DNA from: an uncultured delta proteobacterium
GTDB lineage: Bacteria; Desulfobacterota; Binatia; Binatales; Binataceae
Assembly (NCBI GenBank): GCA_963808235.1
Contig: CAWEEQ010000004.1
Coordinates: forward strand, 2,208,001-2,272,000
Length of the DNA stretch: 64,000 nt
Reading direction: 5' to 3'
The translations under genes were made by a program, and so were the position numbers. This document shows, in pieces, positions 3,220 to 64,000 of the stretch. The notes beneath the pieces are model-generated. The model searched no databases. It saw only the letters and a list, made by a program, of their open reading frames with translations, and was not told the DNA's origin. Each line of letters begins with the position of its first letter. The first letter of the stretch is position 1.

Positions 3220-3229
3220 TTAGCTATCG

Positions 3230-4150: not shown

Positions 4151-4169
4151 TCGCGCGCACGCAAACGTC

Positions 4170-7526: not shown

Positions 7527-8774
7527 ATGATGGATTCAAACGCGCCAACGACCGGAAAGCCGAACGCCGCGCGCTTTATGCAGGATACCGAGGTCAGCAG
7601 CTGGACCGACAAAGTCGGTCAACGATGGCGCACGTGGCTGGTCGTTCTGCTCGTCGCAGGAGTGGTTCTCTATTTCCTGATCGGCAGGAGCCGCGGCGCG
7701 GCGGACACTTCGGCACAGGCGTCCGCGATGGCTCATCCGACGGTTCCGGTCGCCGCGGCGCCCGCAAAGACCGGCGACCTGAACCAATATATTTCCGCGA
7801 TCGGATCGGTGACGTCCTACAACACGGTGACCGTCAAGAGCCGAGTCGACGGCCAGCTCGACAAAGTAAATTTTACCGAAGGACAGTTAGTAAAGGCCGG
7901 AGATTTGTTGGCTGAGATCGATCCCCGTCCCTATCAAGTCGAGCTGGTACAGGCCGAGGGCACGCTGGCCAAAGATCAGGCGTCGCTCAACAACGCGCGG
8001 ACCTTGCTTGCGCGCGACAAGGCTTTGTACGACCAGCAAATTATCGCGCGCCAGGATCTCGATAACCAGGAAGCGGCGGTAGGACAGTTTGCCGGCTCGA
8101 TCGAGAGCGACAAGGGAGCGGTCGCGAACGCAAAGCTTCAACTGACTTACAGCAGAATCACTTCGCCGATCACCGGCCGGGTCGGGCTCAGGCTGGTGGA
8201 CGTCGGCAATATCATCCATGCGACCGACGCGACGGGACTGGTGGTGATCACACAGCTGCAGCCGATCGCGGTTGACTTCAGCATCCCCGAGGACGCCCTG
8301 CCCAGCCTGCAAAAAGCGATGCAAGCCAACAGCGAGTTGCCGGTCGAGGCTTACGACCGTGACTTCAAGAAGAAACTCGCGACCGGAACGCTGCTCACGA
8401 CCGACAACCAGATCGATCAGGCCACCGGCACGATCAAGCTCAAGGCTGCTTTTCCCAACACGGACAACGCGCTGTTCCCAAATCAGTTCGTCAACGCGAA
8501 GCTGCAGGTCGATACCATCCACGATACGATTCTCATCCCCGCGGCCGGGCTACAGCGCAGCCAGCAAGGTCAGTTTGTATATGTCGTCAAGCCGGACCAC
8601 ACCGTCGAGATGCGCATCGTGACCGTGGCCGCAACCCAGGGCGACGTGATCGCCATCGCGAAGGGTCTCAAGGCCGGCGAATTGGTCGTCACCGACGGAG
8701 TGGACAAGCTTCAGCAGGGGTCGCACGTGAATATGCAGATGGCGGCCGTGCCGCCGCCTGGAAACACTCCGTGA
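7527..8774 (+). CDS. mdtA: MdtA/MuxA-like RND periplasmic adaptor
   Basis: [41 protein letters not shown] and [16 protein letters not shown]. Confidence 0.9.
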
Positions 8775-46772: not shown

Positions 46773-47031
46773 GTTTAATTATAACGAAAAACTTTCTTTT
46801 GTTTATTGATTTTATTTCAAACAGATGTAAGAAAGTTTCAGTGTAAGTATTGAAGAAATCTGAACAATATCAGGCATCTTCAGCTCTGGCGTTCTAAAGG
46901 GCCAGGCACTCCACCGCACTTCGGCGTGAACTGACGCGCCGCTCGCAGAGTTCGAGAAGGTGGCTGGGCGGCGCTATCCCGTATTCCGCATCGTCCCGCA
47001 ATGACGCCGGCAACCGCGGTTAAAGTGTCGT

Positions 47032-47457
47032 CTATCGCATCACCGTTCGACGATCCTGGATCGTGTTGAGGTACGCGATTATTTTGCCGATCACTTCGCC
47101 GATCCCGTACTCTCCCCGTTCACCCTGACCTAGCTCGTAAAGCTTCTCTCCCCAAACCGGCATCTCGTGACTCCCATGCGCCCGCGCCGTATCGCGACCG
47201 TCGATCAGCTCGGCGATTCGATGCGCCGGCAGCGGCATCCCGTATTTGTCGCCGAGCTTGCGCAGATTTGCCGGCGGCGTGGCCAGGCTCTTCGCCACCG
47301 GACCGTCGCCGAGAGCGTCCGTGCCATGGCATGACGCGCAATAGCGGACGAAATAGCGATGCCCGTCGGCCACATCATCGCCGGCGGACAGCGCAGGCTG
47401 CGCGACGCTCAGCGCGGCGCCCAGAGCAAAGATCAATCCGAACACTTTCAGTTTCAT
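47032..47457 (-). CDS. Periplasmic monoheme cytochrome c (class I)
   Basis: Signal peptide, CASCHG, PANL and distal Met in HGSHEMPVWG. Confidence 0.92.
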   Translation of the reverse strand: MKLKVFGLIFALGAALSVAQPALSAGDDVADGHRYFVRYCASCHGTDALGDGPVAKSLATPPANLRKLGDKYGMPLPAHRIAELIDGRDTARAHGSHEMPVWGEKLYELGQGERGEYGIGEVIGKIIAYLNTIQDRRTVMR

Positions 47458-47481
47458 GGCTTCACCATGGCTTTGAAATTC

Positions 47482-48426
47482 TCAATGCGCAACCGGCGTT
47501 GCGCTCGCGGTCGGTGTAGTTATCGCAGTCGGCGACGGTTGCATCGCCGCAGCTGCCACTTCAGGATCCGGGATGTATTCGGGCGGATACGCAAGCCGCC
47601 GCCAGCTCATCAACAGAAGCGTCAGCGCTCGCGATTGCTCCGGCTCGAAGTTGTAATCGGGCATCTGCGTGGAGGGCGAAACCGCACTCGCCTTCGTCAG
47701 ATGCTGCACGTTCCAGTTGAACATCGTGTGCCCGCCGCTCACGTGCGCGAAATTCAGCAGTTCGGGATTCCGGTCGCCTTCGTAAGTCAGCTCGGGTCCG
47801 GTAGCGCCGCCGCGCCCTTCGACCACATGGCATAGCAGACACTTTTTCTTCTTGAACAACACCTTGGCGAGATTGATCTCGTCCATCCCCGGTGTGGCCG
47901 CATCATGGCGATGACAAAAATTGCATCGCATCTGGATCATCTCGCCCATCGTGAGCCCGTTTCGTCTTGCCAGCGCGCGCGAGAGCATCGGATCGTCCCA
48001 TCCCTGCCCACCTTGATGAGCGCCCCCGACTGTCGTCGCCGCTCCGTCGCCGCCGTGACACGGCGTGCATCCGAACTTCGCGAACTCATGCTTCGCGATC
48101 CAGTCGTTCATCGGATGTGGCTTCAGCGGCTCGACGATCGTGGCGGGAAGCACCGAAGACCATTCGTAGCCGAGATGGCACGTGATGCACCGATCGGTCA
48201 CCCCAATTTTAGGAATCCAGATTTGCTGAATCCCCGGCCGGAAGTCTCGCGCCGCCTCGCCCTTGCCGTAGTGCCCGAGCAGTTGCGGAAACTTCTGCTG
48301 ATAGATTCCGAATTCGGTGCTGTACTCGAGCCAGAAGCAGACCGCGACCAGCGCCAGGAACAGGATGGACATCGCGACCATCCAGCCGAAGTCCTTCGCT
48401 TCGAACGAGTCGCTATTCTCCGCCAT
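47482..48426 (-). CDS. Membrane-anchored tetraheme cytochrome c
   Basis: N-terminal TM helix, CITCH, CTPCH, CNFCH, CLLCH, GPEL and QMP. ATG 48426 lies just after the cytochrome b stop. Confidence 0.9.
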   Translation of the reverse strand: MAENSDSFEAKDFGWMVAMSILFLALVAVCFWLEYSTEFGIYQQKFPQLLGHYGKGEAARDFRPGIQQIWIPKIGVTDRCITCHLGYEWSSVLPATIVEPLKPHPMNDWIAKHEFAKFGCTPCHGGDGAATTVGGAHQGGQGWDDPMLSRALARRNGLTMGEMIQMRCNFCHRHDAATPGMDEINLAKVLFKKKKCLLCHVVEGRGGATGPELTYEGDRNPELLNFAHVSGGHTMFNWNVQHLTKASAVSPSTQMPDYNFEPEQSRALTLLLMSWRRLAYPPEYIPDPEVAAAAMQPSPTAITTPTASATPVAH

Positions 48427-48427
48427 T

Positions 48428-49729
48428 TCAGTAAAGCCGCGGAGTCTCGGGGCGCGGCTGGCCGGGCCAATAGATCCTCCAATAGGGACCGCGCAAGTAA
48501 ACGCCAAGTATGATCAGCATGATGATCGCGAGCGTCGCGACGGCGAAGGTTGCGTTCTGCCGCTTGCGCTCGGGCGCGAGCCATCGCCCTTCGGCCCTCG
48601 GCGGCGAGCGATCGAGCCACGGCCACAGCGTCAGCACGCCGAGCAGGAATCCGGGCAGCAGTATTCCGCCCAGCAACGCGCCGCTGATCGTATAGCCGCC
48701 GAAGCGAACCGTGGTTGAAGCGACCAGCTCCTGTAGCCAGACGAAATACCACGGCGCCTTCGCCGGATTCGGAGTGACGGAAGGATTGGCGAGACCCTCG
48801 AGCGGCGCGTTGAAGAGGATCGCGGCCAGCAGCGTGATGTTGAACACGACCAGGAATACCAGCACGATTCGCCGCAACATGTTCGGCGACGAGAAAACCT
48901 GGTCGGACTCTTCGAGTCCGGTCGAGCTCATCACCTGTACCGAGGTGCCCGGCGTAATTCCAAACAGTGAGTAACTCTTGGTCTTCGGAGTCGCCTTCGG
49001 GATCATTACCCGGTCATTGCGGACCCGCTCGATCGCTGCAAGGCCGCCGTCCTTGCGTACGCGCCACATATGATAGGCGAACAGCACCCACACGAAGACC
49101 GGCAGGAAAAAAACGTGCAGCACGTAAAATCGCAGCAAGGTCTGCTGTCCGATTTCATGGCCGCCAAGCAGAATGAACTGAATCGTCGGTCCCACGACCG
49201 GCGCCTGCTTCGCGATGCTGGTGCCGACCGTGATTGCCCAGAACGCGAGCTGATCCCACGGCAGCAGATAGCCGGTGAACGACAGGAACAACGTCGCGAG
49301 AAAGAGCACGACTCCGACGACCCAGTTGATCGCGCGAGTGCCGCGGTAAGCGCCGGTGAAGAACACTCGCGCCATGTGGATATAGACGACCGCGACCATA
49401 CCCTCCGCGGCCCATCGATGCTGGTTTCTGAGCAGGCGGCCGAAGCTGACGGCGTATTGCAGGTCCTTGATGCTCCCGTACGCACGCTCGGTCGACGGCA
49501 CGTAGAAGAACATCAGCATCACGCCCGTGACGGTCAGGATGAGCAGCAGCGATGCCGACGCGGTGCCGAGCCAGAACGAGTAGTTCCAATCCATGCTCGC
49601 GCGCGCGACTTTGGCCGGGAACCAGTGGAGCCAGAAGTTCTTGACGATAGCTTCGGACGATTCGCGCTCGCTCTCAGGCGACCATGCCCACGAAGTTTTG
49701 CGCCACAGCGCTTTGATCTTGTCGCCCAC
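48428..49729 (-). CDS. Cytochrome b of a Rieske/cytb complex (b6 and subunit IV fused)
   Basis: Heme ligands QHRW..IHMAR and LHVFF..YHMW, FTGYLLPWDQ, and a variant Qo motif PAKAPWYF. Confidence 0.93.
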   Translation of the reverse strand: MGDKIKALWRKTSWAWSPESERESSEAIVKNFWLHWFPAKVARASMDWNYSFWLGTASASLLLILTVTGVMLMFFYVPSTERAYGSIKDLQYAVSFGRLLRNQHRWAAEGMVAVVYIHMARVFFTGAYRGTRAINWVVGVVLFLATLFLSFTGYLLPWDQLAFWAITVGTSIAKQAPVVGPTIQFILLGGHEIGQQTLLRFYVLHVFFLPVFVWVLFAYHMWRVRKDGGLAAIERVRNDRVMIPKATPKTKSYSLFGITPGTSVQVMSSTGLEESDQVFSSPNMLRRIVLVFLVVFNITLLAAILFNAPLEGLANPSVTPNPAKAPWYFVWLQELVASTTVRFGGYTISGALLGGILLPGFLLGVLTLWPWLDRSPPRAEGRWLAPERKRQNATFAVATLAIIMLIILGVYLRGPYWRIYWPGQPRPETPRLY

Positions 49730-49732
49730 CGC

Positions 49733-50194
49733 TCAAGCCTTGCCTTTTGCGCCGACAATCAGACGGAAGTCGCGCGCGACGTCCTTTGCGCTATCGACTT
49801 CGAGGAAGCCGTCGGGCGAAACTGACGTGGCAAACCAATCGAGCGGACTGGGCGCAGGTCCCGAGATAACGGTGCCGTCGGGACTAAAGCGGCTGCCGTG
49901 GCATGGGCAGTCGAACTCGGTGTCGCGCCACTGCACGTTGCATCCGAGATGCGTGCAGATGGCGGAGATCACGTGGAACGCGTCCTTCTGACGAATCACG
50001 AACAGGCGATGCGCCTGGTCGAGCGTGTAGCCGTCGGGATAGTCGTCGGGGCGCTTGAGCTTGAAGCGGCTCGGCGGTTCGTAGAGCACGTTCGGGAAGA
50101 ATGCCCTGCCTGCTGCGCCGATCTGTGCGACGAAGGCGGCCAACACGGAGCCCTTGCCGATGAAGCGCAGAATCTTTCGCCGATCGCCGTCCAT
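49733..50194 (-). CDS. Rieske iron-sulfur subunit
   Basis: Tat-like DRRKILR plus TM helix, CTHLGC, CPCHGS and GPAP.PL. ATG overlaps the upstream TGA. Confidence 0.93.
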   Translation of the reverse strand: MDGDRRKILRFIGKGSVLAAFVAQIGAAGRAFFPNVLYEPPSRFKLKRPDDYPDGYTLDQAHRLFVIRQKDAFHVISAICTHLGCNVQWRDTEFDCPCHGSRFSPDGTVISGPAPSPLDWFATSVSPDGFLEVDSAKDVARDFRLIVGAKGKA

Positions 50195-52113
50195 CAGCCC
50201 GCAGTCTCTTCGAACTGAAAACGCTCCATCGTGATTGCCGAGGTCGGGCACCGCGTCGCACACAGGCCGCATCGGATGCACTTGGCCTCGTCGTAAAGAA
50301 AGGCGCTGCGGGTCTGCGCTTCCGCCATCACGCCGGCCACCCGCTCCTGATCGGCGATTTCTTCCGCGAGCGTGAAGTGCAGGCAATGCTCCGGACAAAT
50401 GTCGACGCATCGATTGCACAGGATGCATTTCGCGCCGTCGTAGATCGGATGGATATGGCAGTAGAGGCATCGCTCGGCCTGCTCGCGCGCGTCGCCCGGC
50501 GTAAACGTGGACTCGACTTCCGTGATACCGGTGCGACGCGAGAGCGGAACCAGCGGAATCTCGCGATGCTTCAGCTCGTAGTTATCGACCATCCGGTAGG
50601 TATCGGTCGGCAGCTCCTCGATCGTGACAAGCATCCGCGGCTGGCCAAGCGGCTTCCCGCGCAGGTACGCATCGATCCCGCGCGCGGCAACCTTGCCATG
50701 CTGCGCGCAAGTGATCAGCAGCGACGGCGGAAAGGCCGCATCGCCACCTGCGAATACACCCGCGATGCCGGTCTCGAGCGTGACCGGATCGATCTTGAGC
50801 GTTCCCGCCGGCGTGATTGTGACCCCATCTTCAGGCGTGACGAATGACAGGTCCGGCGCCTGCCCGATCGCGAGTATGACCGCGTCGGCGTCAACGATAC
50901 GTTTATCGTTCTCGTCGAATTGCGGCCGGAAGCGGCCGGCGTCGTCGAATACCTTGACGCACTTCACCAGTTCGATTCCGGCGGCATGGCCGTCGCGGAC
51001 AACGATTCGCTTCGGTCCCCAGCCCGGGAGAAAAGTGACGCCTTCGTCGCGGGCGATATCGAGTTCCTCGCGCCCCTGCGCCGATTTCATCGCCGGCATT
51101 TCGGCCCCCGACTCGAGACTCGCGACCGTAACCTCCAGCGCACCGCGCCGCGCCGCCTCGCGCGCCACGTCCAGCGCCACGCGCATCGTGCCGGCCGCGA
51201 CAGTTTGCTCTTCCTCCTGGGACATCACGAGGCCGGGCAGGAGCGCGCGAACCGCGGTCCGAGCCGCATCGATCGCGACCAGGCCGCCGCCTATTACGAC
51301 CACCTTGCCGCCCAGCGCAACGCGATAGCCGCGATTTATGTTGAGCAGATAGTCGATCGCCTTGATCACGCCGTCGGCATCGGTGCCTTCGATCGGAACT
51401 GCGCGGCCGCGCGACGCGCCAACGGCCAGGAAAATTGCTTCGTAACCCTGCTGCTTCAGCTCCCGAACTCCAAAGCCGGGTTTAAGCGGTGCCGAGTAGC
51501 GAAACTCGACGCCGAGCGCTTCGATCTCGCGGACCTGGCAGTCGATCACCTCGCGCGGCAAGCGGTAGGCCGGAATTCCGTATCGAAGCATCCCGCCCGC
51601 GTGCTCCATCGCTTCGAACACCGTCACGCTGTAGCCCATCAGCGCCAGATCGTTTGCGCACGCGAGCCCGGCCGGCCCTGCGCCGACGACCGCGACCTTG
51701 CGCTTCGACCCACCGACGTGAGGCTGCGCGCCGGGTATGTCGATATGACCGGGAGTAACGCTGCCGCCGCCCGTCGGACCCGCGATCATCTCGCGCACTC
51801 CCTTGGAGGAGAGCGCCTCGGGGCCGAATTGCTCGGTGAGAAAACGCTTGAGTGCGCGAATCGTCACAGGCGCGTCGATTTTGCCACGGCGGCATGCGTC
51901 TTCGCATGGAGCGCCGCAAGCGCGTCCGCATATCGAGGCGATCGGATTGGGTGAGCGCGCGACGCGGTATGCCTCCGCGAGGCGTCCTTCCGCGATCAGC
52001 TGAACGTAGCGGCCCGCATCCGTCTTGACCGGACATGCATCGAGGCACGGCACATTTTTGCGGAACCACCACAAGTCGCGCGGCGTCGCGTCGATCGAAT
52101 TTCCATCGCTCAT
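50194..52113 (-). CDS. NAD(P)-dependent Fe-S flavoprotein (GltD/NfnB/DsrL-like) with a C-terminal 2x[4Fe-4S] domain
   Basis: PCLDACP, ICGRACGAPCEDACRR, VGAGPAG, GGMLRYGIP.YRLP, IGGGLVAID, FAGGD, CILCNRCVDICP and CIRCGLCATRCP. Confidence 0.92.
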   Translation of the reverse strand: MSDGNSIDATPRDLWWFRKNVPCLDACPVKTDAGRYVQLIAEGRLAEAYRVARSPNPIASICGRACGAPCEDACRRGKIDAPVTIRALKRFLTEQFGPEALSSKGVREMIAGPTGGGSVTPGHIDIPGAQPHVGGSKRKVAVVGAGPAGLACANDLALMGYSVTVFEAMEHAGGMLRYGIPAYRLPREVIDCQVREIEALGVEFRYSAPLKPGFGVRELKQQGYEAIFLAVGASRGRAVPIEGTDADGVIKAIDYLLNINRGYRVALGGKVVVIGGGLVAIDAARTAVRALLPGLVMSQEEEQTVAAGTMRVALDVAREAARRGALEVTVASLESGAEMPAMKSAQGREELDIARDEGVTFLPGWGPKRIVVRDGHAAGIELVKCVKVFDDAGRFRPQFDENDKRIVDADAVILAIGQAPDLSFVTPEDGVTITPAGTLKIDPVTLETGIAGVFAGGDAAFPPSLLITCAQHGKVAARGIDAYLRGKPLGQPRMLVTIEELPTDTYRMVDNYELKHREIPLVPLSRRTGITEVESTFTPGDAREQAERCLYCHIHPIYDGAKCILCNRCVDICPEHCLHFTLAEEIADQERVAGVMAEAQTRSAFLYDEAKCIRCGLCATRCPTSAITMERFQFEETAG

Positions 52114-52117
52114 CGCG

Positions 52118-52474
52118 CTACTTCTTGCAGAAGGTCCTGATGTACGCGACGAGGTCGTGCATCTCGCCATCCTCGAAGCCTGAGCTCCACGCCTGCATGT
52201 CTTTACTGAGACCGGCGGCCGCGCCGCCGTTCTTGATCACATTGAACATCGTATCGTCGGAAATCTTGCCCATCGCGGCACAGTCAGTGAAATTGCGCGG
52301 GCTGGTGGACAGTGTGGCCGCGGCGGGACCATCGCCCTTGCCGCCGGGGCCGTGACATTTCACGCAAAATGTATCGTAGTTGGTCTTGGCGGTGGCCATG
52401 TCGCCGGCGCGCGCGGGCACAAACGCCAGTGCGATGATTGTGCACGCAGCAAGGATTGAGATGATTCGATTCAC
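52118..52474 (-). CDS. Periplasmic monoheme cytochrome c
   Basis: GTG start after GGAGG, signal peptide, CVKCHG.GGKGDGP, PRNF and DMQAW. Confidence 0.9.
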   Translation of the reverse strand: MNRIISILAACTIIALAFVPARAGDMATAKTNYDTFCVKCHGPGGKGDGPAAATLSTSPRNFTDCAAMGKISDDTMFNVIKNGGAAAGLSKDMQAWSSGFEDGEMHDLVAYIRTFCKK

Positions 52475-52512
52475 GTCGTCCTCCGTCTCATTGTTGCGCA
52501 ACTCAAGCCGAT

Positions 52513-52803
52513 TCAACGAGCCTTGAGGTATTCGAGTATCGCCTTGGCGTCTTCCGGCGGAAAATTTCCGAGCGTACGCATATGCATCATGATCTGGTCC
52601 CACTCGTAGGGCGCCTTCTCGGAGCCCGGGCGCGCGTTGTGACAGGTGTTGCAGTAGACCGGCCACAGTTTAGCACCCTCCCGGAAGAGTCGCTTGTGCT
52701 CAGCCGGAGACATATCTTCTTGCGCCTGGGCCCGGACGGAAGTCCGTGCCGTCCCGATCAGGAGCATTGCAAATGCAATTGCCACGAATATTTTCTTCAT
52801 CAT
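52513..52803 (-). CDS. Small monoheme cytochrome c
   Basis: Signal peptide, YCNTCHN and W..IMMHMR. Confidence 0.88.
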   Translation of the reverse strand: MMKKIFVAIAFAMLLIGTARTSVRAQAQEDMSPAEHKRLFREGAKLWPVYCNTCHNARPGSEKAPYEWDQIMMHMRTLGNFPPEDAKAILEYLKAR

Positions 52804-52814
52804 CGTGACTCCGC

Positions 52815-54377
52815 TCAGAACCCAACCGTGATCTGGCTCAGGAACGCGTGATCGTTCGGGATTGAGCGCGCCGATGTCTCGACGCCCTTGGAGTTAACGA
52901 ACAGCCCTCCGTCGCGCGGCAGTTCGATATCGAATTCGTTTTGCCAGACGATCGACGGTGCGATCCAATAGTCCAGACCCAACGCCACTTCGCGAGCATG
53001 CGGCGCGTACGTCGCAGGCGACCCGTTGATGCCGAAATCGGGGACCAATCCCACCTGCGTGCCGCCCAGCCCGACGCCGGTCGCGCCCTGGATGTCGGCG
53101 ATCGAAACGCCGCGCTGGTTTACGCCCGAATAACGCACCAGCGGCTCGAATCGACGGAGGTAATTGTCGATCACCTCGGGAACGCCGGGGACTTTAACCC
53201 CGCTCAGGAAGTAGCCGGCCTGCAGGTACCATCCCTGTCGATTGTCGGACGCCTGCCCCATCGGCATCTGGCGATACGATGACAGCCACTCGCCCCGGGT
53301 CTGCAGGTTGCCGACGAAGTAATTGAAATCCACGCCCCACGAGTTGAACCAATCTCCGTTGTTCCACTTGCCGTTGTAGGTGGAGGCGCCGAGCTCGAGC
53401 CTGCCCCACTTCGTATCCACCGGCAGGGGGTAGATTCGAAAGCGCCCGCCGATGGACTTGCCGTTGGTCTGGCTGAAGGCGACTGCGGTCGGACTCGACA
53501 TCGCCGCGCCGAGGACGTTCGAGCTGAAATTCGGTCCGTTGCCACCCCAGACCGTCCAATCGAAATCCTGTCCGAGCGCGCCAAATTGCATTCCGCCGCG
53601 AAGCTGGATTCCAAGCTCGCCCGGTGGAACCACGGGCTCGACTCCGAACGGCAGTGGCGCAGTGACGAACCGGTTTACCCACATCGGACTCTGCGCTTCA
53701 TACCAATCGCCGAACGGTTGATCGAAAAGCCCGGCGACGACCGTCATGTACTTGTTTAGAAAAATCTGAAAATCCGCAGTGGACAGATCGGTTCCTGTCC
53801 CGGTCGCTCCAAACCCCGCGCTGAATACGCCCTGAAAGAGTATCCAGTCCGTCGGGCGATACAGGATCATCGGTTCCCAATCGAAGAAGAACGAGTTCTG
53901 CGACGCGTGATGCAGGCCGTCGAGCGCTCCGCTCTGCTGGTCGTAGATGAATTGGCCGCCGGCCGCCCCGGTCACCGTGAACGAATGCGATCCGAGGTAT
54001 TGCTCGACCGCAGTGCCAAACTGCGACGACGCGATCGGCGCTTCGACCTTCGTCTGCAAGGTCTTCACCTGGGCGTTGGTCTGCTGAAGCTCGAGCGTGG
54101 TCTCCTTCAGCTTCTGATCGGTGCTCTGCAGTTGGCGCGTGGTGGTCTCGACGCTTGAATCTTTCGTCTCGAGCTGCTGAACCTTGACCTCGAGTGAGCG
54201 AATAACTTCGCGGTCGCGCTTGCGCTCCTCTCGCATCTGACGCATCTCGGCTCTGATTTCCTTGAGCGCGGCGGCGGCGGTAGCGTCACTGTCTGCCGCG
54301 CGTGCCGGCCCCGCCATTGATAACGCCGCGACTGCGATTGCGAACAGAAATGTCGAGAAAATTCGTCCGGCTCGCAT
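52815..54377 (-). CDS. Outer-membrane porin with an N-terminal coiled coil
   Basis: Signal peptide, about 80-aa heptad region, beta-strand pattern (GLFDQPFG, GIQLRG, GWYLQAGY, LGLDYW) and a terminal Phe. ATG 54377 follows GGGGGAG. Confidence 0.85.
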   Translation of the reverse strand: MRAGRIFSTFLFAIAVAALSMAGPARAADSDATAAAALKEIRAEMRQMREERKRDREVIRSLEVKVQQLETKDSSVETTTRQLQSTDQKLKETTLELQQTNAQVKTLQTKVEAPIASSQFGTAVEQYLGSHSFTVTGAAGGQFIYDQQSGALDGLHHASQNSFFFDWEPMILYRPTDWILFQGVFSAGFGATGTGTDLSTADFQIFLNKYMTVVAGLFDQPFGDWYEAQSPMWVNRFVTAPLPFGVEPVVPPGELGIQLRGGMQFGALGQDFDWTVWGGNGPNFSSNVLGAAMSSPTAVAFSQTNGKSIGGRFRIYPLPVDTKWGRLELGASTYNGKWNNGDWFNSWGVDFNYFVGNLQTRGEWLSSYRQMPMGQASDNRQGWYLQAGYFLSGVKVPGVPEVIDNYLRRFEPLVRYSGVNQRGVSIADIQGATGVGLGGTQVGLVPDFGINGSPATYAPHAREVALGLDYWIAPSIVWQNEFDIELPRDGGLFVNSKGVETSARSIPNDHAFLSQITVGF

Positions 54378-54855
54378 AGTCTCCCCCGATCTGCGCCGAC
54401 TCACTCGGCGCTTCCGTCTGAGAGCAACAGTTGTGCCCCAGATACCCATATTTGCGTTCACCTAGCGCCGAGACGCGTCGCAGCTACGTCTACATGATCA
54501 CCCGCCGCTGAGTCCCCGAGCATTGGACCGAGCTCGTCCGCAAACTTTCTCGCAAAACAATCAGACTTTCGAAAGAATCGACCTAATCGGCCGTCTCATG
54601 ATCGAACATAAATGTCCCCTGAAGCACCAAACTAGGGTGCGGACTCCTCTTAAGGATCGGGATCGCCGTCATTCGACCCTTGGCTATGACGCCTGTCGCC
54701 AACGGTGGCAGCGCCTGTATCCGAACGATACAAGATTCGGGTTGGCGCCCGAATTTCGTCGGATAGCCGACACTCAATTGCCGCAATCATTCGGCACGAA
54801 CAATGAAAAGGAATGCTGGAGTTGGCTATCAGCGATCCGGGATTAGGAGAGGAAA

Positions 54856-55083
54856 ATGCAATTTCAGATCAATTCATCTGAATCGGCGATGACTGAAGCG
54901 GTCGAGACGCAAATCCTCGCGCACGTCAAAGCGCTCGAAGACTACGTTCCCCCGACGTTCGAGTCACCACTATCTTTCCGCCTGACGGCTATGGCGTGCT
55001 GGAAACTCGTGACGGGCGGGAAATCTATTTTCGTAGCGACCCTGCCGAGGCTCGCGCCGGAGCTTGAACCGTCGCAACGGTGA
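54856..55083 (+). CDS. Small hypothetical protein
   Basis: Strong RBS AGGAGAGG; ends 4 bp before the next ATG. Confidence 0.45.
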   Translation: MQFQINSSESAMTEAVETQILAHVKALEDYVPPTFESPLSFRLTAMACWKLVTGGKSIFVATLPRLAPELEPSQR

Positions 55084-55087
55084 GTCT

Positions 55088-55606
55088 ATGAAAGCGAATA
55101 TGAGCGCTGCCAAGAAGCCGTCCGCAAAGCGAGCCAAGAAGCTCAACGACACCCGCAAGATACGAAACCTAACCGAAGAGCTGAGCCGCGAAGAATACCT
55201 GCTCGGGATGCCGCTGCTGGACGCGGCGGTCGCCGGGGTGATTCTCGGCTTCAAGCCGTCGGATCGCGAGATGCGCACGCAGGCGCAGCGATGCTGGGAA
55301 CTTCTGAAGCCGCGACTCAATCAGCATCTGCTCAGCGAAGATGAAACCCTGCTGCCATGGGCTGAAGGTGAAGGCGGCATCTCTGCCGGGGTCATGGATC
55401 GAATCAAAAAGAACCACCGCGAGATCCGCGCTCTGATCGGCAGGCTAATCGGAGTGTCATTCGAAGAGGATCCAGACAAGGTCGTCTCGGTGGCCGGCAA
55501 AGCGCTGTGCGCACTTGCGATCAAGCTCGATGACCTCATCGACAGTGAAGAGATGCGACTGCTGCCAACGCTCAGAAGGATGCTGTTCGCCCAGCTCAGC
55601 GATTAG
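55088..55606 (+). CDS. Hemerythrin-like domain protein with degenerate metal ligands
   Basis: HLLSEDETLLP, KNHREI and LIDSEEMRLLP. Confidence 0.65.
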   Translation: MKANMSAAKKPSAKRAKKLNDTRKIRNLTEELSREEYLLGMPLLDAAVAGVILGFKPSDREMRTQAQRCWELLKPRLNQHLLSEDETLLPWAEGEGGISAGVMDRIKKNHREIRALIGRLIGVSFEEDPDKVVSVAGKALCALAIKLDDLIDSEEMRLLPTLRRMLFAQLSD

Positions 55607-55633
55607 ACGGTCACATAGTGGGAAGGCCGCAAG

Positions 55634-55786
55634 ATGAGTGAGTATCAAGGATATCTAATCGAGAAAGATCCTGAGACTGGACGGTGGCATATTCCCTGGA
55701 AGGGGAAGAAACAGGCTGTCGAGTTTGACAAGGAGTCGCAGGCCGAAGAGTGGATCGACGAGCAATTTCCGTCGCATCGATTCTAA
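55634..55786 (+). CDS. 50-aa hypothetical protein (below the ORF-track cutoff)
   Basis: MSEYQGYLIEKDPETGRWHIPWKGKKQAVEFDKESQAEEWIDEQFPSHRF; purine-rich GGGAAGG upstream. Confidence 0.55.
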   Translation: MSEYQGYLIEKDPETGRWHIPWKGKKQAVEFDKESQAEEWIDEQFPSHRF

Positions 55787-55934
55787 GACCGTTACTCTAC
55801 AGACCGTCCTTTTTCGATCTTCGCGTAGAGCTTCTTGCGGGAGATTCGAAGCATAGCAGCTAGAGCGATGCTAATCGTCGATGGCTGTCAATCTGCGGCA
55901 TTCACGGAATGAACCTCGCTCCGTCAGAATACAG

Positions 55935-55990
55935 TGCCGGGGGCGGGACTCGAACCCGCACAGAGCTTTCGCTCCAGAGGATTTTAAGTC
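55935..55990 (-). repeat. 3' half of tRNA-Leu(TAA); att site between islands 1 and 2
   Basis: Minus strand GACTTAAAATCCTCTGGAGCGAAAGCTCTGTGCGGGTTCGAGTCCCGCCCCCGGCA; the 5' half is absent. Confidence 0.88.
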
Positions 55991-56319
55991 GTCTAGGTTT
56001 GACTATAACTACTTGAAAACATTGGTTTTCTTCCTTCGCTCATGTGAGACTGTGTAACTTTATGTGTAAGTTTTCAAGAATATCCGACTGGTTTTAAAGG
56101 CCTGTCGGGCCGATTTGCGGGCTCCTGGGAGCGGGGTGGCCATCCATGTCAGTGGCCCCCTCGGCATGGCCGCAGGCGGTCGCTTTGACGTACGTAAATT
56201 CCTTTCCAATGCTGTTCATGCCGCGGACAGTGGGAAGTCAGCCTGCGAGTTTTGCTGCACACGGGGCACGGTAAAGGCTTAAGTTTCAGCAAATCGCGAA
56301 AGGCCTGCGAGGCTTCGGA

Positions 56320-61251: not shown

Positions 61252-62436
61252 ACGAAGCCGGCTAGCTCAAAGATTCTGACGATCAACGGCGGCTCGTCGA
61301 GCATTAAATTCGCGTTGTTTGAAGCTGGCGAGCCGCTACGCCGTTCGTTGGACGGAAGTACCGACCGGATCGGCCTGCCCGACGCCAGGTTCGCAATCAA
61401 AGGCTCGGAGAAATTTTCGCGAGCGTTGGCTGTGCCGAACCACACGGTCGCTGTGAAGGTCTTGATGGATTGGCTGGAGCAACGCATGGATCGCGACGCT
61501 TTGACAGCGGTCGGGCATCGCGTGGTGCATGGCGGGCCGAAGTATAGCAGCGCGCAGCGAATCACCCCGGCAATGATCGAGGAGTTGCACCGGCTGAGCG
61601 CATTCGATCCCGAGCATATGCCCGAGGAGATTCTGTTGACCGGTGCGTTTCATCACCGGTTTCCGGATGTGCCGCAAGTCGCGTGTTTCGACACAGCTTT
61701 TCACCAAGACCTGCCGCGAGTCGCCCGGTTGTTGCCCATCCCTCGTCGCTACGAGGCGCAAGGTGTGCGGCGGTACGGATTCCACGGGTTGTCGTATGCG
61801 TTTTTAGTGGGAGAACTCGCCCGCGTGGCGGGAATGGAAGCGGCACAAGGCCGGGTCATCCTCGCGCATCTCGGCAACGGCGCGAGCCTGGCGGCGGTGC
61901 GTCACGGCAAATCGATTGACACGAGCATGAGCTTCACTCCGACGGCCGGAGTGCCGATGAGCACCCGCTCGGGCGATCTCGATCCCGGACTGGTTTGGTA
62001 TCTGACGCGCTCGGAAAAAATGAGCGCGAAGGAATTCAACGAGATGGTCAATTTCCAGTCGGGGCTGCTCGGGATGTCCGAGACCAGTTCCGACATGCAC
62101 GACCTGCTCGAACTTGAAGCGCATGACGTGCGGGCGGCCGAAGCGGTCGCGGTGTTTTGTTACCAGGTCAAGAAGTGGATCGGCGCATTCGCGGCGTCGC
62201 TGGGCGGACTGGACACGCTGGTGTTCGCCGGCGGCATCGGCGAAAACGCCCCCGTGGTCCGGTCCCGCATTTGCGACGGCCTGGGATTCCTCGGCATTGA
62301 ACTCGAAGAGAAGCGAAACGCGGCGAATGAAGGCGTGATTTCCGCGGCGGCCGGCCGGGTCACGGTCCGCGTCATTCGTACGGATGAAGACCTCATGATC
62401 GCCAGGACGGTTTGCAGCGTTCTTGGCCTTGGCTGA
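61252..62436 (+). CDS. ackA: Acetate/propionate kinase with an apparent non-canonical ACG start
   Basis: [13 protein letters not shown] lies upstream of the ORF-track start. Also [30 protein letters not shown] and GGIGEN. Confidence 0.9.
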
Positions 62437-62453
62437 AAAAGGAGAATCGAACC

Positions 62454-64000
62454 ATGAACGCAGAGACTCTCTCCGCGGAACTGCTTCACAAGATGGACGC
62501 CTACTGGCGCGCCGCCAATTACATCTCGGTCGGCCAGATTTATCTCTACAACAATCCCCTGCTAAACGAGCCGCTCAAATTGTCGGACGTGAAACCGCTG
62601 GTAGTCGGACACTGGGGCACGACGCCGGGCCAGAACTTCATCTATGTGCATTTGAACCGGGTCATCAAGGAATACGACCTGGATATGTTCTACATTGCCG
62701 GTCCCGGTCATGGCGGTCCGGCGCTGGTGGGCAACACTTATCTCGAAGGCACCTATAGTGAGATTTATCCGAACATCAGCCAGGACGAAGCGGGACTGAA
62801 GAAGTTGTTCAAGCAATTTTCATTTCCCGGGGGGATATCCAGCCACGTTGCACCGACGACGCCGGGCTCGATCCACGAAGGTGGCGAGCTGGGCTACTCG
62901 TTAAGCCACGCCTTCGGAGCCGCGTTCGACAATCCCGATCTTATCGTGTCCTGCGTCATCGGCGACGGTGAGGCGGAAACCGGGCCGCTCGCGACCGCAT
63001 GGCAGTCCAACAAGCTGCTGAATCCAATTTCCGACGGAGCCGTGCTACCGATCCTGCACCTCAATGGCTACAAGATAAGCAACCCGACCTTGCTGGCTCG
63101 CATTGAGCATGACGAACTGGAGCAATTCCTGCGAGGCTGCGGATGGACACCTTACTTTGTCGAAGGTGACGAGCCGGAAAAGATGCATCAACTCATGGCG
63201 GGTACTTTGGAAAAGGTCATCGAGGACATCCGACAAATCCAAAGCAATGCACGGAAGAATAACGACACCACTCGGCCACGCTGGCCAATGATCGTACTGA
63301 GATCACCCAAGGGTTGGACGGGACCGAAAGTCGTTGACGGCTTGCAAATCGAGGGCACCTTCCGATCGCACCAAGTGCCGCTTCTCGTTGATCCCGAACA
63401 TCCCGACCACGTCAAGCTGCTTGAAAGCTGGATGAAGAGCTACAAGGCCGAGGAGTTGTTCGATGAGCACGGCCGTCTCATGCCGGAATTGGCCGAGCTG
63501 GCGCCCAAGGGTGAACGGCGGATGGGCGCCAACCCGCATAGCAACGGCGGAATTCTGCTGCGCGACCTGCGGATGCCAGACTTCCGCGAGCACGCTGTAG
63601 AGGTCCCATCACCCGGCGCCGTCGAGGCCCAGGATACTCTCGTGCTGGGCAAGTTCCTGCGTGATGTGGCCAAACTGAATCAGGAGCAGCGTAACTTTCG
63701 CGTCTTCGGCCCCGATGAGACGCTCTCGAATCTTCTGGGCGCGGTTTTTGAAGTCACTAACCGTCAGTGGGACGCGCGCGAGGCCAAGAATGATGAATTC
63801 CTCGCGCCCGCCGGACGGGTGCTGGACTCGATGCTCAGCGAGCACCAGTGCCAAGGTTGGCTCGAGGGTTATCTGCTCACCGGCCGGCACGGGCTGTTCA
63901 ACAGCTATGAGGCATTCATTCGCATCGTCGACTCGATGTTCAGCCAGCATGCCAAGTGGCTGAAGGTGACGCTGGAACTACCCTGGCGCCGGAAGATCGC
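62454..64000 (+). CDS. xfp: Phosphoketolase (xylulose-5-P/fructose-6-P), truncated by the window end
   Basis: [48 protein letters not shown] and SEHQCQG. RBS AAGGAG. Confidence 0.96.

Follow-up and report, generated by a model that had tools for sequence, protein, structure and literature searches.

Gene content and setting of the operon

We analysed a 64-kb stretch of DNA (the window) from a soil Candidatus Binatus of the family Binataceae, in which eight genes, here g1 to g8, are present as open reading frames on the minus strand (Table 1). Domains were called with Pfam and NCBIfam profiles together with a motif scan. A first-pass annotation had described eight co-oriented genes with gaps below 40 bp, and both this layout (intergenic gaps of 11, 38, 4, -1, i.e., an overlap, 3, 1, and 24 nt, from the likeliest start codons) and its gene-by-gene domain content are borne out. 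The operon comprises two modules, one of a porin and cytochromes (g1 to g3) and one of a Rieske protein, a cytochrome b, and a flavoprotein (g4 to g8). The order of genes 1 to 7 is kept in all 10 related loci of a first set, fetched by a cytochrome b match, and also in 16 of 64 further porin modules, fetched by a porin match, and is therefore not due to chance.

Table 1. Genes and sites at the locus, with positions in the window
Feature	Coordinates	Strand	Basis and remarks
g1, outer-membrane porin, 520 aa from ATG 54377	52815..54377	-	Pfam, motif scan, AlphaFold2, Foldseek
g2 (c96), monohaem cytochrome c (CNTCH), 96-aa precursor, ~70 residues mature	52513..52803	-	ORF, Pfam
g3, soluble monohaem cytochrome c (CVKCH)	52118..52474	-	likely start GTG 52474, giving signal peptide
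g4, cytoplasmic Fe-S flavoprotein, 639/658 aa	50194..52113	-	alternative start ATG 52170
g5, Tat-exported Rieske [2Fe-2S] protein	49733..50194	-	start ATG 50194, one-base overlap with g4 stop
g6, fused cytochrome b6-like + subunit IV-like protein, 433 aa	48428..49729	-	Cytochrome_B + Cytochrom_B_C
g7, membrane-anchored tetrahaem cytochrome c	47482..48426	-	CITCH, CTPCH, CNFCH, CLLCH; likely start ATG 48426
g8, monohaem cytochrome c (CASCH), signal peptide	47032..47457	-	ORF, Pfam, motif scan
sigma-54-type promoter-like site GGGCAC-N5-TTGCT	54423..54438	-	46-61 nt upstream of porin ATG
hemerythrin/HHE-domain gene	55064..55606	+	Pfam Hemerythrin 30.3 bits; divergent from operon

The sigma-54 consensus is TGGCAC-N5-TTGCW, and at one mismatch its sole match in the window is the site upstream of the porin. 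Among related modules, GGCAC-N5-TTGC occurs in the 250 nt before the porin start in 15 of the 27 that are linked to the Rieske complex (about 60 nt upstream of the gene, which we count towards operon status) and in 4 of 18 modules of the class "other" (see below), but in none of the remaining 30 modules and none of 75 internal control stretches. No RNA run was found that covers this DNA. The divergent hemerythrin gene lies upstream of the porin in 10 of the 27 Rieske-linked modules, and homologues are also found in three congeners that lack the operon; its product is possibly a sensor, and the gene may stand outside the machine. The notion that the operon is island-borne is without support, as there is no tRNA in the 64-kb window, no mobile-element family among the 20 flanking ORFs scanned, and similar G+C in the operon (0.59-0.65) and elsewhere in the window (0.55-0.64).

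The Rieske/cytochrome b/flavoprotein module

In the flavoprotein g4, a Fer4_20 domain at the N-terminus and a 2x[4Fe-4S] ferredoxin at the C-terminus flank a Pyr_redox_2 domain of the FAD/NAD(P) type, and neither a membrane helix nor a signal peptide was found in the protein by the motif scan. It scores 404.8 bits against the NCBIfam model NF009410 (cut-off 516), and its best solved relatives are 9bov/9bp5 (E 7.3e-77), followed by NfnA 9n5u; 9bp5 is the entry that the available part of an anammox study names for its own flavoprotein subunit (PMC12954380). The Rieske protein g5 has DRRKILRF as its twin-arginine motif and CTHLGC and CPCHGS as its boxes. Its best solved relatives are 9rk3 (Kustd1480, 3.8e-21) and 9rk4 (Kuste4569, 6.4e-21), with the best b6f Rieske protein reaching only 2.3e-15. 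The proposal that a porin/cytochrome unit is joined here to a Rieske/b/NAD(P)-flavoprotein complex of the anammox kind is thus upheld by the closest structures of both proteins.

In the fused cytochrome b (g6) we recognized His104/118/205/220, the conserved His35, and an APWY motif; the protein has no cysteine and therefore no covalent haem cN site. The NCBIfam models ExtP and ExtQ match it at 251.5 bits (cut-off 290) and 73.7 bits (cut-off 150), respectively. The tetrahaem cytochrome g7, with one N-terminal membrane helix, follows the cytochrome b in 10 of 10 related loci, and g8 is present after g7 in seven of them. Four further families of the class possess a core of flavoprotein, Rieske protein, cytochrome b, and multihaem cytochrome that is not accompanied by a porin.

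The porin and its cytochrome partner

The porin g1 consists of a signal peptide, a helical/coiled-coil stalk (residues ~33-130; coiled-coil-type matches cover residues ~57-160 of the 548-aa ORF), and a 16-strand beta-barrel (132-519), the 16 strands being modelled by AlphaFold2 with high pLDDT in the barrel. The motif scan found neither Cys nor CxxCH in it. The top Foldseek matches to the model are OprP (2o4v, E 5.7e-14) and OprO (4rjw), and a DcaP-type porin (6eus) is also among the matches. With these trimeric porins g1 shares the fold (E 5.7e-14 to 2.8e-10) and a long inward-folded loop after strand 5; it differs from them in that its sequence matches Porin_O_P only weakly (16.5 bits, under the Pfam cut-off of 20.9) and that its gene is always paired with a cytochrome gene. 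DcaP bears an N-terminal coiled-coil stalk that resembles that of g1, which we propose to lie in the periplasm. In its own genome the porin is single-copy and occurs only alongside c96.

The residues W47, C51, C54, H55, W68, H74, and M75 of c96 are invariant among 67 homologues. When the porin and c96 were modelled together, a complex was predicted in three runs with scores of 0.90, 0.91, and 0.91 (the best of three controls scored 0.00); the contacts numbered 94-96, and the partner had a pLDDT of 88. This score is the model's own confidence. In calibration, 58 of 80 solved complexes attained the mark used, as did 2 of 110 mismatched pairs; the calibration is only roughly valid here given the custom alignments and the riding haem. 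Projected onto the porin model that was built separately, the interface residues fall on the beginning of strand 1, the turns on the periplasmic side, and the long loop 220-252, and it is from this placement that c96 is predicted to cap the periplasmic mouth of the barrel. Conservation of at least 90% is seen at 20 of 44 interface residues of the porin vs 96 of 348 other barrel residues (one-sided Fisher p 0.013); on the c96 side the enrichment is not significant (12 of 31 vs 9 of 39, p 0.12). A variant on a named plasmid record has three CxxCH motifs fused to the porin N-terminus, and here too a c96-like cytochrome comes after the porin. We consider it very probable that the porin and c96 bind. 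The interface suspected by the first-pass annotation is thus strongly predicted; its other concern, that the porin might be an ordinary one lacking any cytochrome contact, holds only for the fold, which is that of ordinary trimeric porins with OprP first. The adjoining g3 matches the NCBIfam model of cytochrome 579 weakly (37.3 bits vs a cut-off of 280).

Genomic contexts of the porin/c96 pair

A c96 homologue lies at most 600 nt downstream on the same strand in all 75 Binataceae porin genes of our sample, across porin identities of 30-100%, and a match to the c96 profile adjoins the porin in all 80 loci from about a dozen other phyla (79 downstream, one upstream). The profile is specific, with two matches at E<=1e-3 in the whole 4.59-Mb genome of the host. 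The pair recurs, without a name, across many bacterial groups. No porin match was found in 49 of 165 Binataceae genomes.

The 75 modules, of which 11 were picked via the cytochrome b and the rest across identity tiers, are not a random sample, so that the following class shares are not frequencies: 27 modules contain the Rieske/b/flavoprotein genes, 12 a two-domain copper oxidase (three of these also fall into another class), 9 have coxBACD and a cupredoxin upstream, 12 a cupredoxin downstream, and 18 are "other". The gene immediately after c96 encodes a g3 homologue in 51 modules and a cupredoxin in 21 more; a second soluble carrier, either a c-type cytochrome or a cupredoxin, is present in 72 of the 75. 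These contexts cluster on the porin tree, with 15 changes vs a mean of 38.7 for shuffled labels (none of 200 shuffles was as low). The co-conservation of the porin and cytochromes with the Rieske/b/flavoprotein genes, which had been put forward as a check, is real but not exclusive: the porin, c96, and the CVKCH cytochrome are linked to that complex in 27 of the 75 modules, from seven Binataceae genera, and each part also occurs alone, the pair being without the Rieske complex in the other 48 modules and in the 80 loci of other phyla.

In the oxidase-class modules the pair lies between the cox genes and a UbiA-family gene, and in one complete genome such a module is interleaved with rpe, cbbL, cbbS, cbbX, and fba. 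RuBisCO was found in only 6 of the 165 Binataceae genomes and not in the genome of the window, so lithoautotrophy is not the general use of the system.

Possible function

As encoded, the operon would provide a continuous chain of redox centres from an outer-membrane pore to the quinone pool and the cytoplasmic NAD(P)(H). The porin and c96 may work like an unfused Cyc2, in that a small redox-active solute enters the pore and meets the single haem, the CxxCH of c96 being predicted to lie against the inward-folded constriction loop; that the pair acts on a redox solute entering the pore is on balance probable. We tentatively favour, with slightly less than even weight, a reading in which a metal ion is oxidized there and the operon serves as the NAD(P)-directed branch. 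The reductant would give up its electron at c96, a metal cation being the likeliest (Fe2+ before Cu+ or Mn2+), although Fe(II) in particular remains somewhat doubtful. Electrons would then join the periplasmic cytochrome c pool through g8 and g3, the latter a putative soluble monohaem shuttle. In the sister operons the pair would feed an aa3 oxidase via a cupredoxin, as a downhill branch; in the operon of the window it would be wired to the Rieske/b/flavoprotein complex, through which quinol and NAD(P)H would communicate with the cytochrome c pool. The products of g4 to g8 may form a Rieske/cytochrome b6-type quinol:cytochrome c oxidoreductase with an NfnB/GltD-like flavoprotein on its cytoplasmic face, and could pass the electrons of quinol partly to cytochrome c and partly to NAD(P)+, as proposed for Kuste4569-74 and Kustd1480-85. 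The analysis itself shows which genes are present, their folds, how strictly porin and c96 genes are paired, an interface by prediction, and the genomic contexts; complex formation in vivo, the substrate, the direction of flow, and bifurcation are what we infer, and for inward flow we would put the chance just short of even.

Electrons may also leave the cell. The Rieske/b complex would then oxidize quinol and pass one electron through the tetrahaem cytochrome, the soluble cytochromes, and c96 to an oxidant entering the pore (an Fe(III) or Mn(III) chelate, Cu(II), or a humic quinone), and this high-potential sink would pay for the reduction of NAD(P)+ by the second electron, coupling export to bifurcation. 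Quinol-oxidizing complexes, the Rieske/b complex here as well as that of Bacteroidota, where NrfD and 4Fe-4S genes precede the pair (9 and 8 of the 80 loci), normally reduce cytochrome c. In Alteromonadaceae and Methylococcaceae the pair adjoins FAD/NAD/2Fe-2S flavoproteins of the NAD(P)H type, an FMN_bind protein, and a heptahaem cytochrome, a set typical of outward electron flow. The anammox proposal also requires a high-potential acceptor, according to the available part of PMC12954380. We nevertheless regard export as unlikely, since it leaves unexplained the operons with aa3 oxidase and cupredoxin (9 of 75 modules) and the Calvin-cycle neighbours in one genome, an exit conduit would be in competition with a terminal oxidase for electrons, and a single haem behind a narrow constriction would be a poor outlet for bulk respiration.

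The pair might instead be a copper gate rather than a respiratory conduit, the pore passing copper and c96 setting its redox state, either by reducing Cu(II) to Cu(I) to supply cuproenzymes or by oxidizing Cu(I) to Cu(II) for detoxification, with respiratory neighbours merely supplying or taking up electrons. Copper proteins are indeed the commonest partners in Binataceae (cupredoxins in 21, two-domain multicopper oxidases in 12, and a CuA/CuB oxidase in 9 of 75 modules), the 80 distant loci include a CopA-type ATPase with an HMA domain in 15, a CusB-like protein in 10, and RND pumps in 8, and CopC/CopD lie near the pair on an Alteromonas macleodii plasmid. Outer-membrane copper importers tied to respiratory oxidases are also described in the available part of PMC12914433. 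But the operon of the window and 24 like it have no copper protein, 49 of 165 Binataceae genomes show no porin match, most of the 80 distant loci have no copper gene within ~6 kb, and a whole Rieske/b/flavoprotein complex seems heavy as an electron supply for metal trafficking, so that we think this quite improbable. Ordinary co-transcription, in which the porin is a solute channel and c96 a periplasmic carrier of the Rieske/b complex that form no specific complex, would agree with the fold of general or anion-selective trimeric porins and with the coiled-coil stalk of plain channels such as DcaP. It is very improbable given the strict adjacency in 155 of 155 loci while every other neighbour varies, the complex score against that of the controls, the single porin copy found only with c96, and the natural fusion of haem motifs and porin.

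Comparison with known systems

Rieske/cytochrome b complexes of anammox bacteria were reportedly treated by Kartal in 2013. The Rieske proteins of two of them, Kuste4569-4574 and Kustd1480-1485, are the closest solved relatives of g5, and Kustd1480 shares with it a Ser kept after box II and a change of Tyr to Phe (PMC12954380 for the anammox proteins, here and below, as far as its available part goes). Like the operon, these complexes combine a b6-like cytochrome b and a part corresponding to subunit IV with an Fe-S flavoprotein of NAD(P) type that is cytoplasmic and related to NfnABC (9bp5), and in both a multihaem cytochrome c stands in for cytochrome f (PMC12954380). In the operon, by contrast, cytochrome b and subunit IV are fused, the cysteine for the haem cN used by the anammox models is missing, the multihaem cytochrome is tetrahaem instead of hexa- or octahaem, and there is no HAO-like subunit (PMC12954380). 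The complex is also preceded by an outer-membrane module, and the host is an aerobic-type soil bacterium without an anammoxosome.

The extHIJKLMNOPQS cluster of Geobacter sulfurreducens resembles the operon in having a porin weakly like phosphate-selective porins (ExtI), a small protein of ~100 aa after it (ExtJ), c-type cytochromes, a Rieske protein (ExtO), a cytochrome b (ExtP), a membrane protein (ExtQ), and a four-haem cytochrome (ExtS); ExtI has been linked to selenite and tellurite reduction (PMC5877670). In the available part of that study, ExtJ is not described as a cytochrome, and the cluster includes a rhodanese and cytochromes with 10 and 12 haems but no flavoprotein (PMC5877670). 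The first-pass annotation knew of no description of the combination; porin, cytochromes, Rieske protein, and cytochrome b together are in print for ext, though not with a flavoprotein (PMC5877670, available part). The ExtP and ExtQ scores of g6 both lie under the NCBI cut-offs, and no Ext-named NCBIfam model is listed at E<=0.01 for g1, g5, or g7.

MtrCAB, MtoAB/PioAB, and the Geobacter Pcc systems likewise have beta-barrel and c-type cytochrome genes side by side and one predicted outer-membrane complex. Their barrels have 20-28 strands and sheathe a membrane-spanning multihaem wire (PMC8406198, PMC5877670, available parts). MtrAB and PioAB, named initially as analogues, are therefore poor ones: with 16 strands and a single-haem partner there is no electron wiring across the membrane and the substrate must diffuse in, which makes Cyc2 the apt comparison.

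In Acidithiobacillus ferrooxidans, the downhill rus operon links a haem-porin of the outer membrane with a cupredoxin and an aa3 oxidase, and the uphill petI operon links such a porin with a bc-type complex for NAD(P)H formation (PMC13741234, PMC10654088, available parts), similar to the two branches proposed here. Haem-synthesis genes (ctaAB-like) adjoin cox in both organisms. The Binataceae organism is not an acidophile, and its NAD(P) link is a flavoprotein on the Rieske/b complex, in contrast to reverse flow via complex I.

The porin part of Cyc2 has itself been likened to 2o4v and 4rjw, and its cytochrome domain was proposed to plug the periplasmic opening (PMC8406198, available part, as for Cyc2 below). 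The fused cytochrome-porin Fe(II) oxidases Cyc2/Cyt572 and the pair share a barrel of 16 strands, closest among solved folds to OprP and OprO, and a single c-type haem that is proposed, and for c96 predicted, to plug that opening; in both, the substrate has to pass into the pore (Keffer et al. 2021, PMC8406198). Both are also linked genetically to an aa3 oxidase, a bc-type complex, and a soluble carrier, which is either a cytochrome c or a cupredoxin (PMC8406198, PMC13741234). They differ in that the Cyc2 cytochrome is an N-terminal domain and c96 a separate gene downstream of the porin, and in that c96 has LWP[VI]YCxxCHNARPG in place of the Cyc2 motif AxPxFAR[Q/K][T/Y], five residues before CXXCH, and PxL, four after (PMC8406198); g1 further has its coiled-coil stalk. 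As FeGenie discards porin matches without a haem motif (PMC8406198), it would miss this form. Judged by the models, the porin/c96 pair has the architecture of an unfused Cyc2, without the defining features of Cyc2 itself.

The operon and its surroundings

Eight co-oriented ORFs, as read by the first-pass annotation, are present on the minus strand, and their labels are borne out by Pfam, NCBIfam and a motif scan (see table). The second gene encodes the small cytochrome here called c96. With the likeliest start codons, the successive intergenic gaps are 11, 38, 4, -1, 3, 1 and 24 nt. The core of the sigma-54-type site found before the porin (GGCAC-N5-TTGC) occurs at the same upstream place in 15 of 27 operons of the Rieske type and in none of 75 internal control stretches. 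Given this placement, the porin probably heads a single transcription unit, as judged from the sequence. The datasets that cover window positions 47000-55700 are soil-metagenome DNA contigs only (best share 0.48), with no RNA dataset among them.

The operon had been described as island-borne, which is not upheld: the window contains no tRNA gene, none of 20 flanking ORFs belongs to a mobile-element family, and the G+C content of the operon is ordinary. Proteins 83-84% identical to the g1 porin carry the source labels Candidatus Binatus or Binataceae, which is the basis for the name of the organism. Because the flanks match dispersed positions in five congeners, an empty site could not be sought for comparison.

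A stretch of about 60 bp between hemerythrin and Rieske-oxygenase genes recurs at many sites (86-95% identity) in all five congeners searched, and from its sequence looks like a small dispersed intergenic repeat. Elsewhere the window encodes two Rieske-type oxygenases, amidohydrolases, an RPE65-family dioxygenase and three RND pumps.

Features of the operon and of loci discussed in the text. L numbers are fetched loci (positions within the locus unless a genome is given), G numbers genomes (G000, own genome) and C numbers contigs.
Feature	Location	Strand	Description	Evidence
g1-g8	window 47032-54377	-	eight ORFs
g1		-	porin-like; sub-threshold Porin_O_P match; coiled-coil-type matches near N-terminus; no cysteine	Pfam/NCBIfam, motif scan
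g2 (c96)		-	96-aa cytochrome c, CNTCH	Pfam/NCBIfam, motif scan
g3		-	cytochrome c, CVKCH	Pfam/NCBIfam, motif scan
g4		-	Fer4_20 + Pyr_redox_2 + C-terminal double [4Fe-4S] domain	Pfam/NCBIfam
g5		-	Rieske protein; twin-arginine signal DRRKILRF; boxes CTHLGC and CPCHGS	Pfam/NCBIfam, motif scan
g6		-	433-aa cytochrome b, b6 part + subunit IV part	Pfam/NCBIfam
g7		-	membrane-anchored cytochrome, four CxxCH	motif scan
g8		-	cytochrome c, CASCH	motif scan
Sigma-54-type site	46-61 nt 5' of porin ATG		GGGCAC-N5-TTGCT	motif scan of window
Putative dispersed repeat	window 55933-55995		about 60 bp, intergenic
Acetate kinase, then phosphoketolase (XFP)	window 61315-63998	+	XFP gene runs off window end
Two further cytochrome b loci, own genome	G000:C4:2483145-2484726 and 1155406-1155954		outside window
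L027 copper protein	8646-9650	-	two-domain, after porin-c96-cytochrome c
L081	G017:C1:694000-712000		second porin/c96 module of a complete Binatus genome
L174 fused protein	2636-4912		758 aa, on plasmid record NZ_CP082853.1

Distribution of the two modules

The operon is common, not sporadic. An orthologue of its cytochrome b (at least 75% identity) is found in 19 of the 24 congeners searched (the copy in genome G020 is split in three pieces), and the porin in 39 of 46 congeners, 116 of 165 family genomes and 25 of 30 genera; four unpublished genomes are counted here but contributed no loci. All ten related loci fetched via their cytochrome b match keep the order g1-g7, and g8 comes next in seven of them.

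The operon unites two modules, the porin with c96 and a soluble cytochrome c (g1-g3) and the Rieske/cytochrome b/flavoprotein complex (g4-g8), which also occur apart. Four other families of the same class have the flavoprotein-Rieske-cytochrome b-multihaem core without the porin, which neither tblastn nor profiles found there; the c96 profile gives one weak match in these families, inside a seven-haem protein. Within Binataceae, all 75 porin genes examined (porin identities 30-100%) are followed on the same strand, at most 600 nt downstream, by a c96 homologue. These 75 modules are a non-random sample, 11 taken via cytochrome b and 64 across identity tiers of porin match lists. The pair is accompanied by the Rieske/b/flavoprotein genes in 27 modules from 7 genera, a two-domain multicopper oxidase in 12 (3 of them double-counted with another class), a full aa3-type oxidase operon with cupredoxin upstream in 9, a cupredoxin downstream in 12 and other genes in 18; 16 of the 64 porin-chosen modules are Rieske-linked. 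A second soluble carrier stands beside c96 in 72 of the 75, either a CVKCH-type cytochrome (51) or a cupredoxin (21).

These context labels cluster on a porin tree, built by a quick search only and containing one very long branch, which requires 15 changes of context, whereas shuffled labels need 38.7 on average and none of 200 shuffles gets as low. Two classes come out as clades, that of the oxidase with 100% support and that of the cupredoxin with 94%. One locus (L033, G014:C140) carries two porin/c96 modules in tandem, the copper-oxidase type immediately preceding the Rieske type, and two genomes have two full Rieske-type operons each on different contigs (G012, C5 and C14; G453, C11 and C13).

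Predicted complex of the porin and c96

The AlphaFold2 model of the porin comprises three low-confidence N-terminal helices and a confident 16-strand barrel. OprP (2o4v, E 5.7e-14) and OprO (4rjw) are both within its top three Foldseek neighbours, followed by general porins, DcaP and OmpM1. On the Pfam model for phosphate-selective porins O and P (PF07396) the sequence scores 16.5 bits, below the gathering cut-off of 20.9, and the fold is common to both. c96 is modelled as a three-helix, class-I-like cytochrome. Its sequence has only a sub-threshold Cytochrome_CBB3 match (21.5 bits, cut-off 27), and its fold search returned no solved structure at E<=0.001 (best 6cuk, E 0.93).

Modelling predicts a contact between the porin and the 96-aa cytochrome. 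Predictions with the mature porin, the mature c96 and a haem scored 0.90, 0.91 and 0.91, versus 0.00 for the best of three controls, with 94-96 contacts and a partner pLDDT of 88. In calibration, 58 of 80 solved complexes scored at or above the mark used, as did 2 of 110 mismatched pairs; these figures are only a rough guide for the present pair because it was predicted with its own alignments and a riding haem ligand.

Porin contacts fall on the start of strand 1, on turns 2-3, 4-5, 6-7, 8-9, 10-11 and 14-15, and on residues 227-234, part of the long loop after strand 5, as placed by mapping the listed contact residues onto the separate porin model. By the established rule for which turns of a barrel count as periplasmic (also in PMC8406198), these turns are periplasmic and the loop after strand 5 is the inward-folded constriction loop. 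c96 is predicted to sit at the periplasmic mouth against this loop, and its contact residues include 52-59 (the CxxCH motif) and H74. The porin interface is enriched in positions with at least 90% conservation (20 of 44 versus 96 of 348, p 0.013); on the c96 side, enrichment in conserved residues is not significant (p 0.12).

The pair beyond Binataceae

A profile of 67 porins matches 962 cluster representatives at E<=1e-3. Using six mid-distance porin representatives as query and one genome per species, we collected 80 distant loci labelled Gammaproteobacteria (28), Planctomycetota (13), Verrucomicrobiota (9), Bacteroidota (9), 'Deltaproteobacteria' (5), Myxococcota (4) and other Binatia (4), with single loci from Spirochaetales, Acidobacteriota, Betaproteobacteria, Alphaproteobacteria, Omnitrophota, Gemmatimonadota, KSB1 and one unlabelled bacterium. 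In all 80, the c96 profile matches an ORF touching the porin gene (79 downstream, 1 upstream; E 1e-11 to 1e-32), and in the whole own genome this profile has two matches only. Strict porin/c96 pairs are found, going by locus labels, in Binataceae and in each of these groups.

Neighbours of the 80 distant pairs include CopA-type ATPases (15 loci), sigma-54 response regulators (14), histidine kinases (12), CusB-like proteins (10), NrfD (9), 4Fe-4S proteins with NrfD (8) and RND pumps (8). In loci from Alteromonadaceae, an FAD/NAD/2Fe-2S flavoprotein and a heptahaem cytochrome come after the pair; in one from Methylococcaceae, it is followed by an FMN_bind protein and a flavoprotein similar to that of Alteromonadaceae. 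Where annotation was seen, the pair is named just 'porin' and 'cytochrome c', as on the Alteromonas macleodii plasmid NZ_CP147980.1 (L173). There the c96-like cytochrome is dihaem, and the pair has CopC/CopD/RND genes on one side and, on the other, hydrogenase genes together with those for an FAD/NAD/2Fe-2S protein and a heptahaem 'cytochrome c3 family protein'; five ORFs of this locus carry the annotation hypothetical, and four corresponding ORFs in the matching Aliiglaciecola locus (L166) have no Pfam match. A second plasmid locus (L174) encodes a protein annotated 'c-type cytochrome' in which three CxxCH motifs are fused before a porin domain belonging to this family, then a dihaem cytochrome whose first domain is c96-like, then a trihaem cytochrome.

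The Rieske/cytochrome b/flavoprotein module

The best solved relatives of the Rieske protein by sequence are 9rk3 (E 3.8e-21) and 9rk4 (E 6.4e-21), ahead of the best b6f Rieske (2.3e-15). They are Kustd1480 and Kuste4569, described as parts of two anammox complexes with a putative NAD(P) oxidoreductase (PMC12954380). The CxH and CxCH Rieske boxes of the anammox type have their equivalents in g5. The flavoprotein is closest to 9bov/9bp5 (E 7.3e-77), and 9bp5 is named as a structural homologue of the anammox subunit Kuste4570 (PMC12954380). Such an NfnB/GltD-type Fe-S flavoprotein adjoins the Rieske gene in the window as well as in the loci of the four other families.

The anammox b6-like cytochrome b and subunit IV part are here Cytochrome_B and Cytochrom_B_C domains of one chain, whose haem histidines (His104, 118, 205 and 220) are kept in 32 of 32 homologues. 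The anammox models also have a covalent haem cN on cytochrome b, whereas the site is absent here: the window protein, like 24 of the 32 homologues, has no cysteine and therefore no such haem. AlphaFold3 models of the anammox complexes have N-terminal His43/His62 binding an extra inter-monomer haem b (PMC12954380), and His35 of g6 (in N[LF]xLH, kept in 31 of 32 homologues) could be the counterpart. Two further cytochrome b loci in the own genome, a split b6/subunit IV pair (49% and 38% identity) that nearly all relatives have and a 39%-identical cytochrome b, make g4-g8 an additional complex of the Rieske/b type and not the sole one.

On the Ext models the cytochrome b scores 251.5 bits for ExtP (NF040969, N-terminal part; curated cut-off 290) and 73.7 bits for ExtQ (NF040970, C-terminal part; curated cut-off 150). 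The Geobacter extHIJKLMNOPQS cluster, as described in PMC5877670, encodes an OprP-like porin, a small protein, cytochromes, a Rieske protein, a cytochrome b, ExtQ and a four-haem cytochrome, and is a precedent for a porin with Rieske/b, but without the flavoprotein. The combination in the operon had been thought undescribed, which does not hold for the porin with Rieske/b. The Rieske/b/flavoprotein part is another case of an already known, still hypothetical kind.

Direction of electron flow

The initial view of the operon as a trans-envelope electron conduit is supported in part: gene content, folds, strict pairing, predicted interface and gene contexts come directly from the analysis, while substrate and direction stay matters of interpretation. 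With only one haem behind its constriction, the porin offers no electron wire through the membrane; the substrate would have to be small and enter the pore, where it would meet the c96 haem.

The oxidase operons are the best discriminating contexts for the direction. In this class coxBACD-cupredoxin borders the pair on one side and a UbiA-family gene on the other. The L081 cluster of a complete Binatus genome contains coxBACD, cupredoxin, a UbiA-family gene, rpe, a CoxII-cytochrome c fusion and a two-domain copper oxidase, and adjoins fba, cbbL, cbbS and cbbX. A terminal oxidase acts as an electron sink, so the likeliest role for an outer-membrane module encoded with it is that of a source, here of electrons for the aa3-type oxidase. 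In Acidithiobacillus, the gene order is cyc2-cox-rus. The Binataceae oxidase operons run parallel to the logic of that system (PMC13741234).

On this reading the window operon would represent the other branch, its entry module being coupled to a complex through which the cytochrome c pool, quinol and NAD(P)H are connected. The anammox proposal has quinol reduce cytochrome c and NAD(P)+ and needs an oxidised cytochrome c pool (PMC12954380); with menaquinone, such a scheme would need an acceptor above roughly +180 mV by arithmetic from the potentials quoted there. In our full reading, an OprP-like porin and a capping monohaem cytochrome of about 70 residues would form a pan-bacterial outer-membrane redox gate, an unfused counterpart of Cyc2 that escapes tools which require a haem motif in the porin; plugged in Binataceae into the flavoprotein-bearing Rieske/b complex, it would pass the electrons of a metal reductant that enters the pore, for example Fe(II), on to NAD(P)H with no need for complex I to run in reverse. 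We put this forward tentatively, as a chain that is unlikely to hold in its entirety.

The main rival is outward flow to an oxidant that enters the pore. It would suit the Rieske, NrfD-type and NAD(P)H-flavoprotein contexts, but the oxidase operons place the pair beside a sink, where it is better read as a source, and we regard outward flow as possible yet doubtful. The many copper neighbours would instead fit a gate for copper; 25 copper-free operons like that of the window do not, which leaves such a role rather improbable. RuBisCO was rejected as a marker of lithoautotrophy: it is found in 6 of 165 family genomes and is absent from the own genome, and all six genomes are porin-positive, no different from the 116/165 background. 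The two-domain copper protein of sister loci (the L027 protein, with homologues in 12 of the 75 modules and a Tat-like signal) resembles copper nitrite reductase; we do not call it NirK because it scores 161.6 bits on TIGR02376 (cut-off 296.3) and appears to have Met at the position that we take to be the type-2 copper histidine of NirK motifs.

Significance and comparison with known systems

Should the pair prove to be a redox gate, a widespread means of electron transfer at the outer membrane has been overlooked until now, and it would be undercounted by iron-oxidation surveys that demand a haem motif within the porin (PMC8406198). Discussion of NAD(P)-linked Rieske/b complexes has so far concerned anammox bacteria, which are difficult to handle, and a version conserved across a class offers more material to test quinol bifurcation to NAD(P)H. 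Should the full reading be true, it would provide a non-anammox test case for the long-proposed NAD(P)-reducing Rieske/b bifurcation and give abundant soil bacteria a route from metal reductant to NAD(P)H. A term search of the main text of the phylum's main genomic survey (PMC8262859) finds neither Rieske nor porin, so a metal-linked or lithotrophic side of these soil bacteria would be new relative to that text.

We found no description of an unfused porin and monohaem cytochrome pair in literature lying largely outside subscription journals, and term searches inside PMC13741234, PMC10654088 and PMC5566968 likewise returned none. The Mtr, Mto, Pio and Pcc systems have a barrel of 20-28 strands around a multihaem cytochrome, whereas the barrel here has 16 strands and a partner with one CxxCH. 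Cyc2, as described by Keffer et al. (PMC8406198), is a 16-strand porin structurally like OprO/OprP (4RJW, 2O4V), and the porin modelled here shares strand number and fold. In Cyc2, however, a CXXCH cytochrome domain is fused to the porin N-terminus, whereas here the porin is cysteine-free and the haem protein is a separate downstream ORF. The Cyc2 motifs AxPxFAR[Q/K][T/Y], five residues before CXXCH, and PxL, four residues after it (PMC8406198), are both absent from c96 and from the consensus of 67 c96 sequences (GAxLWPVYCNxCHNARPGSEF). The unfused cytochrome and the missing motifs rule out membership of the Cyc2 family. FeGenie discards porin matches without a haem motif (PMC8406198) and so would miss the unfused form. 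In the predicted complex, the pair would reproduce the Cyc2 architecture from two genes, and this strictly conserved, widespread and unnamed pair is a more notable result than the Rieske/b/flavoprotein module.
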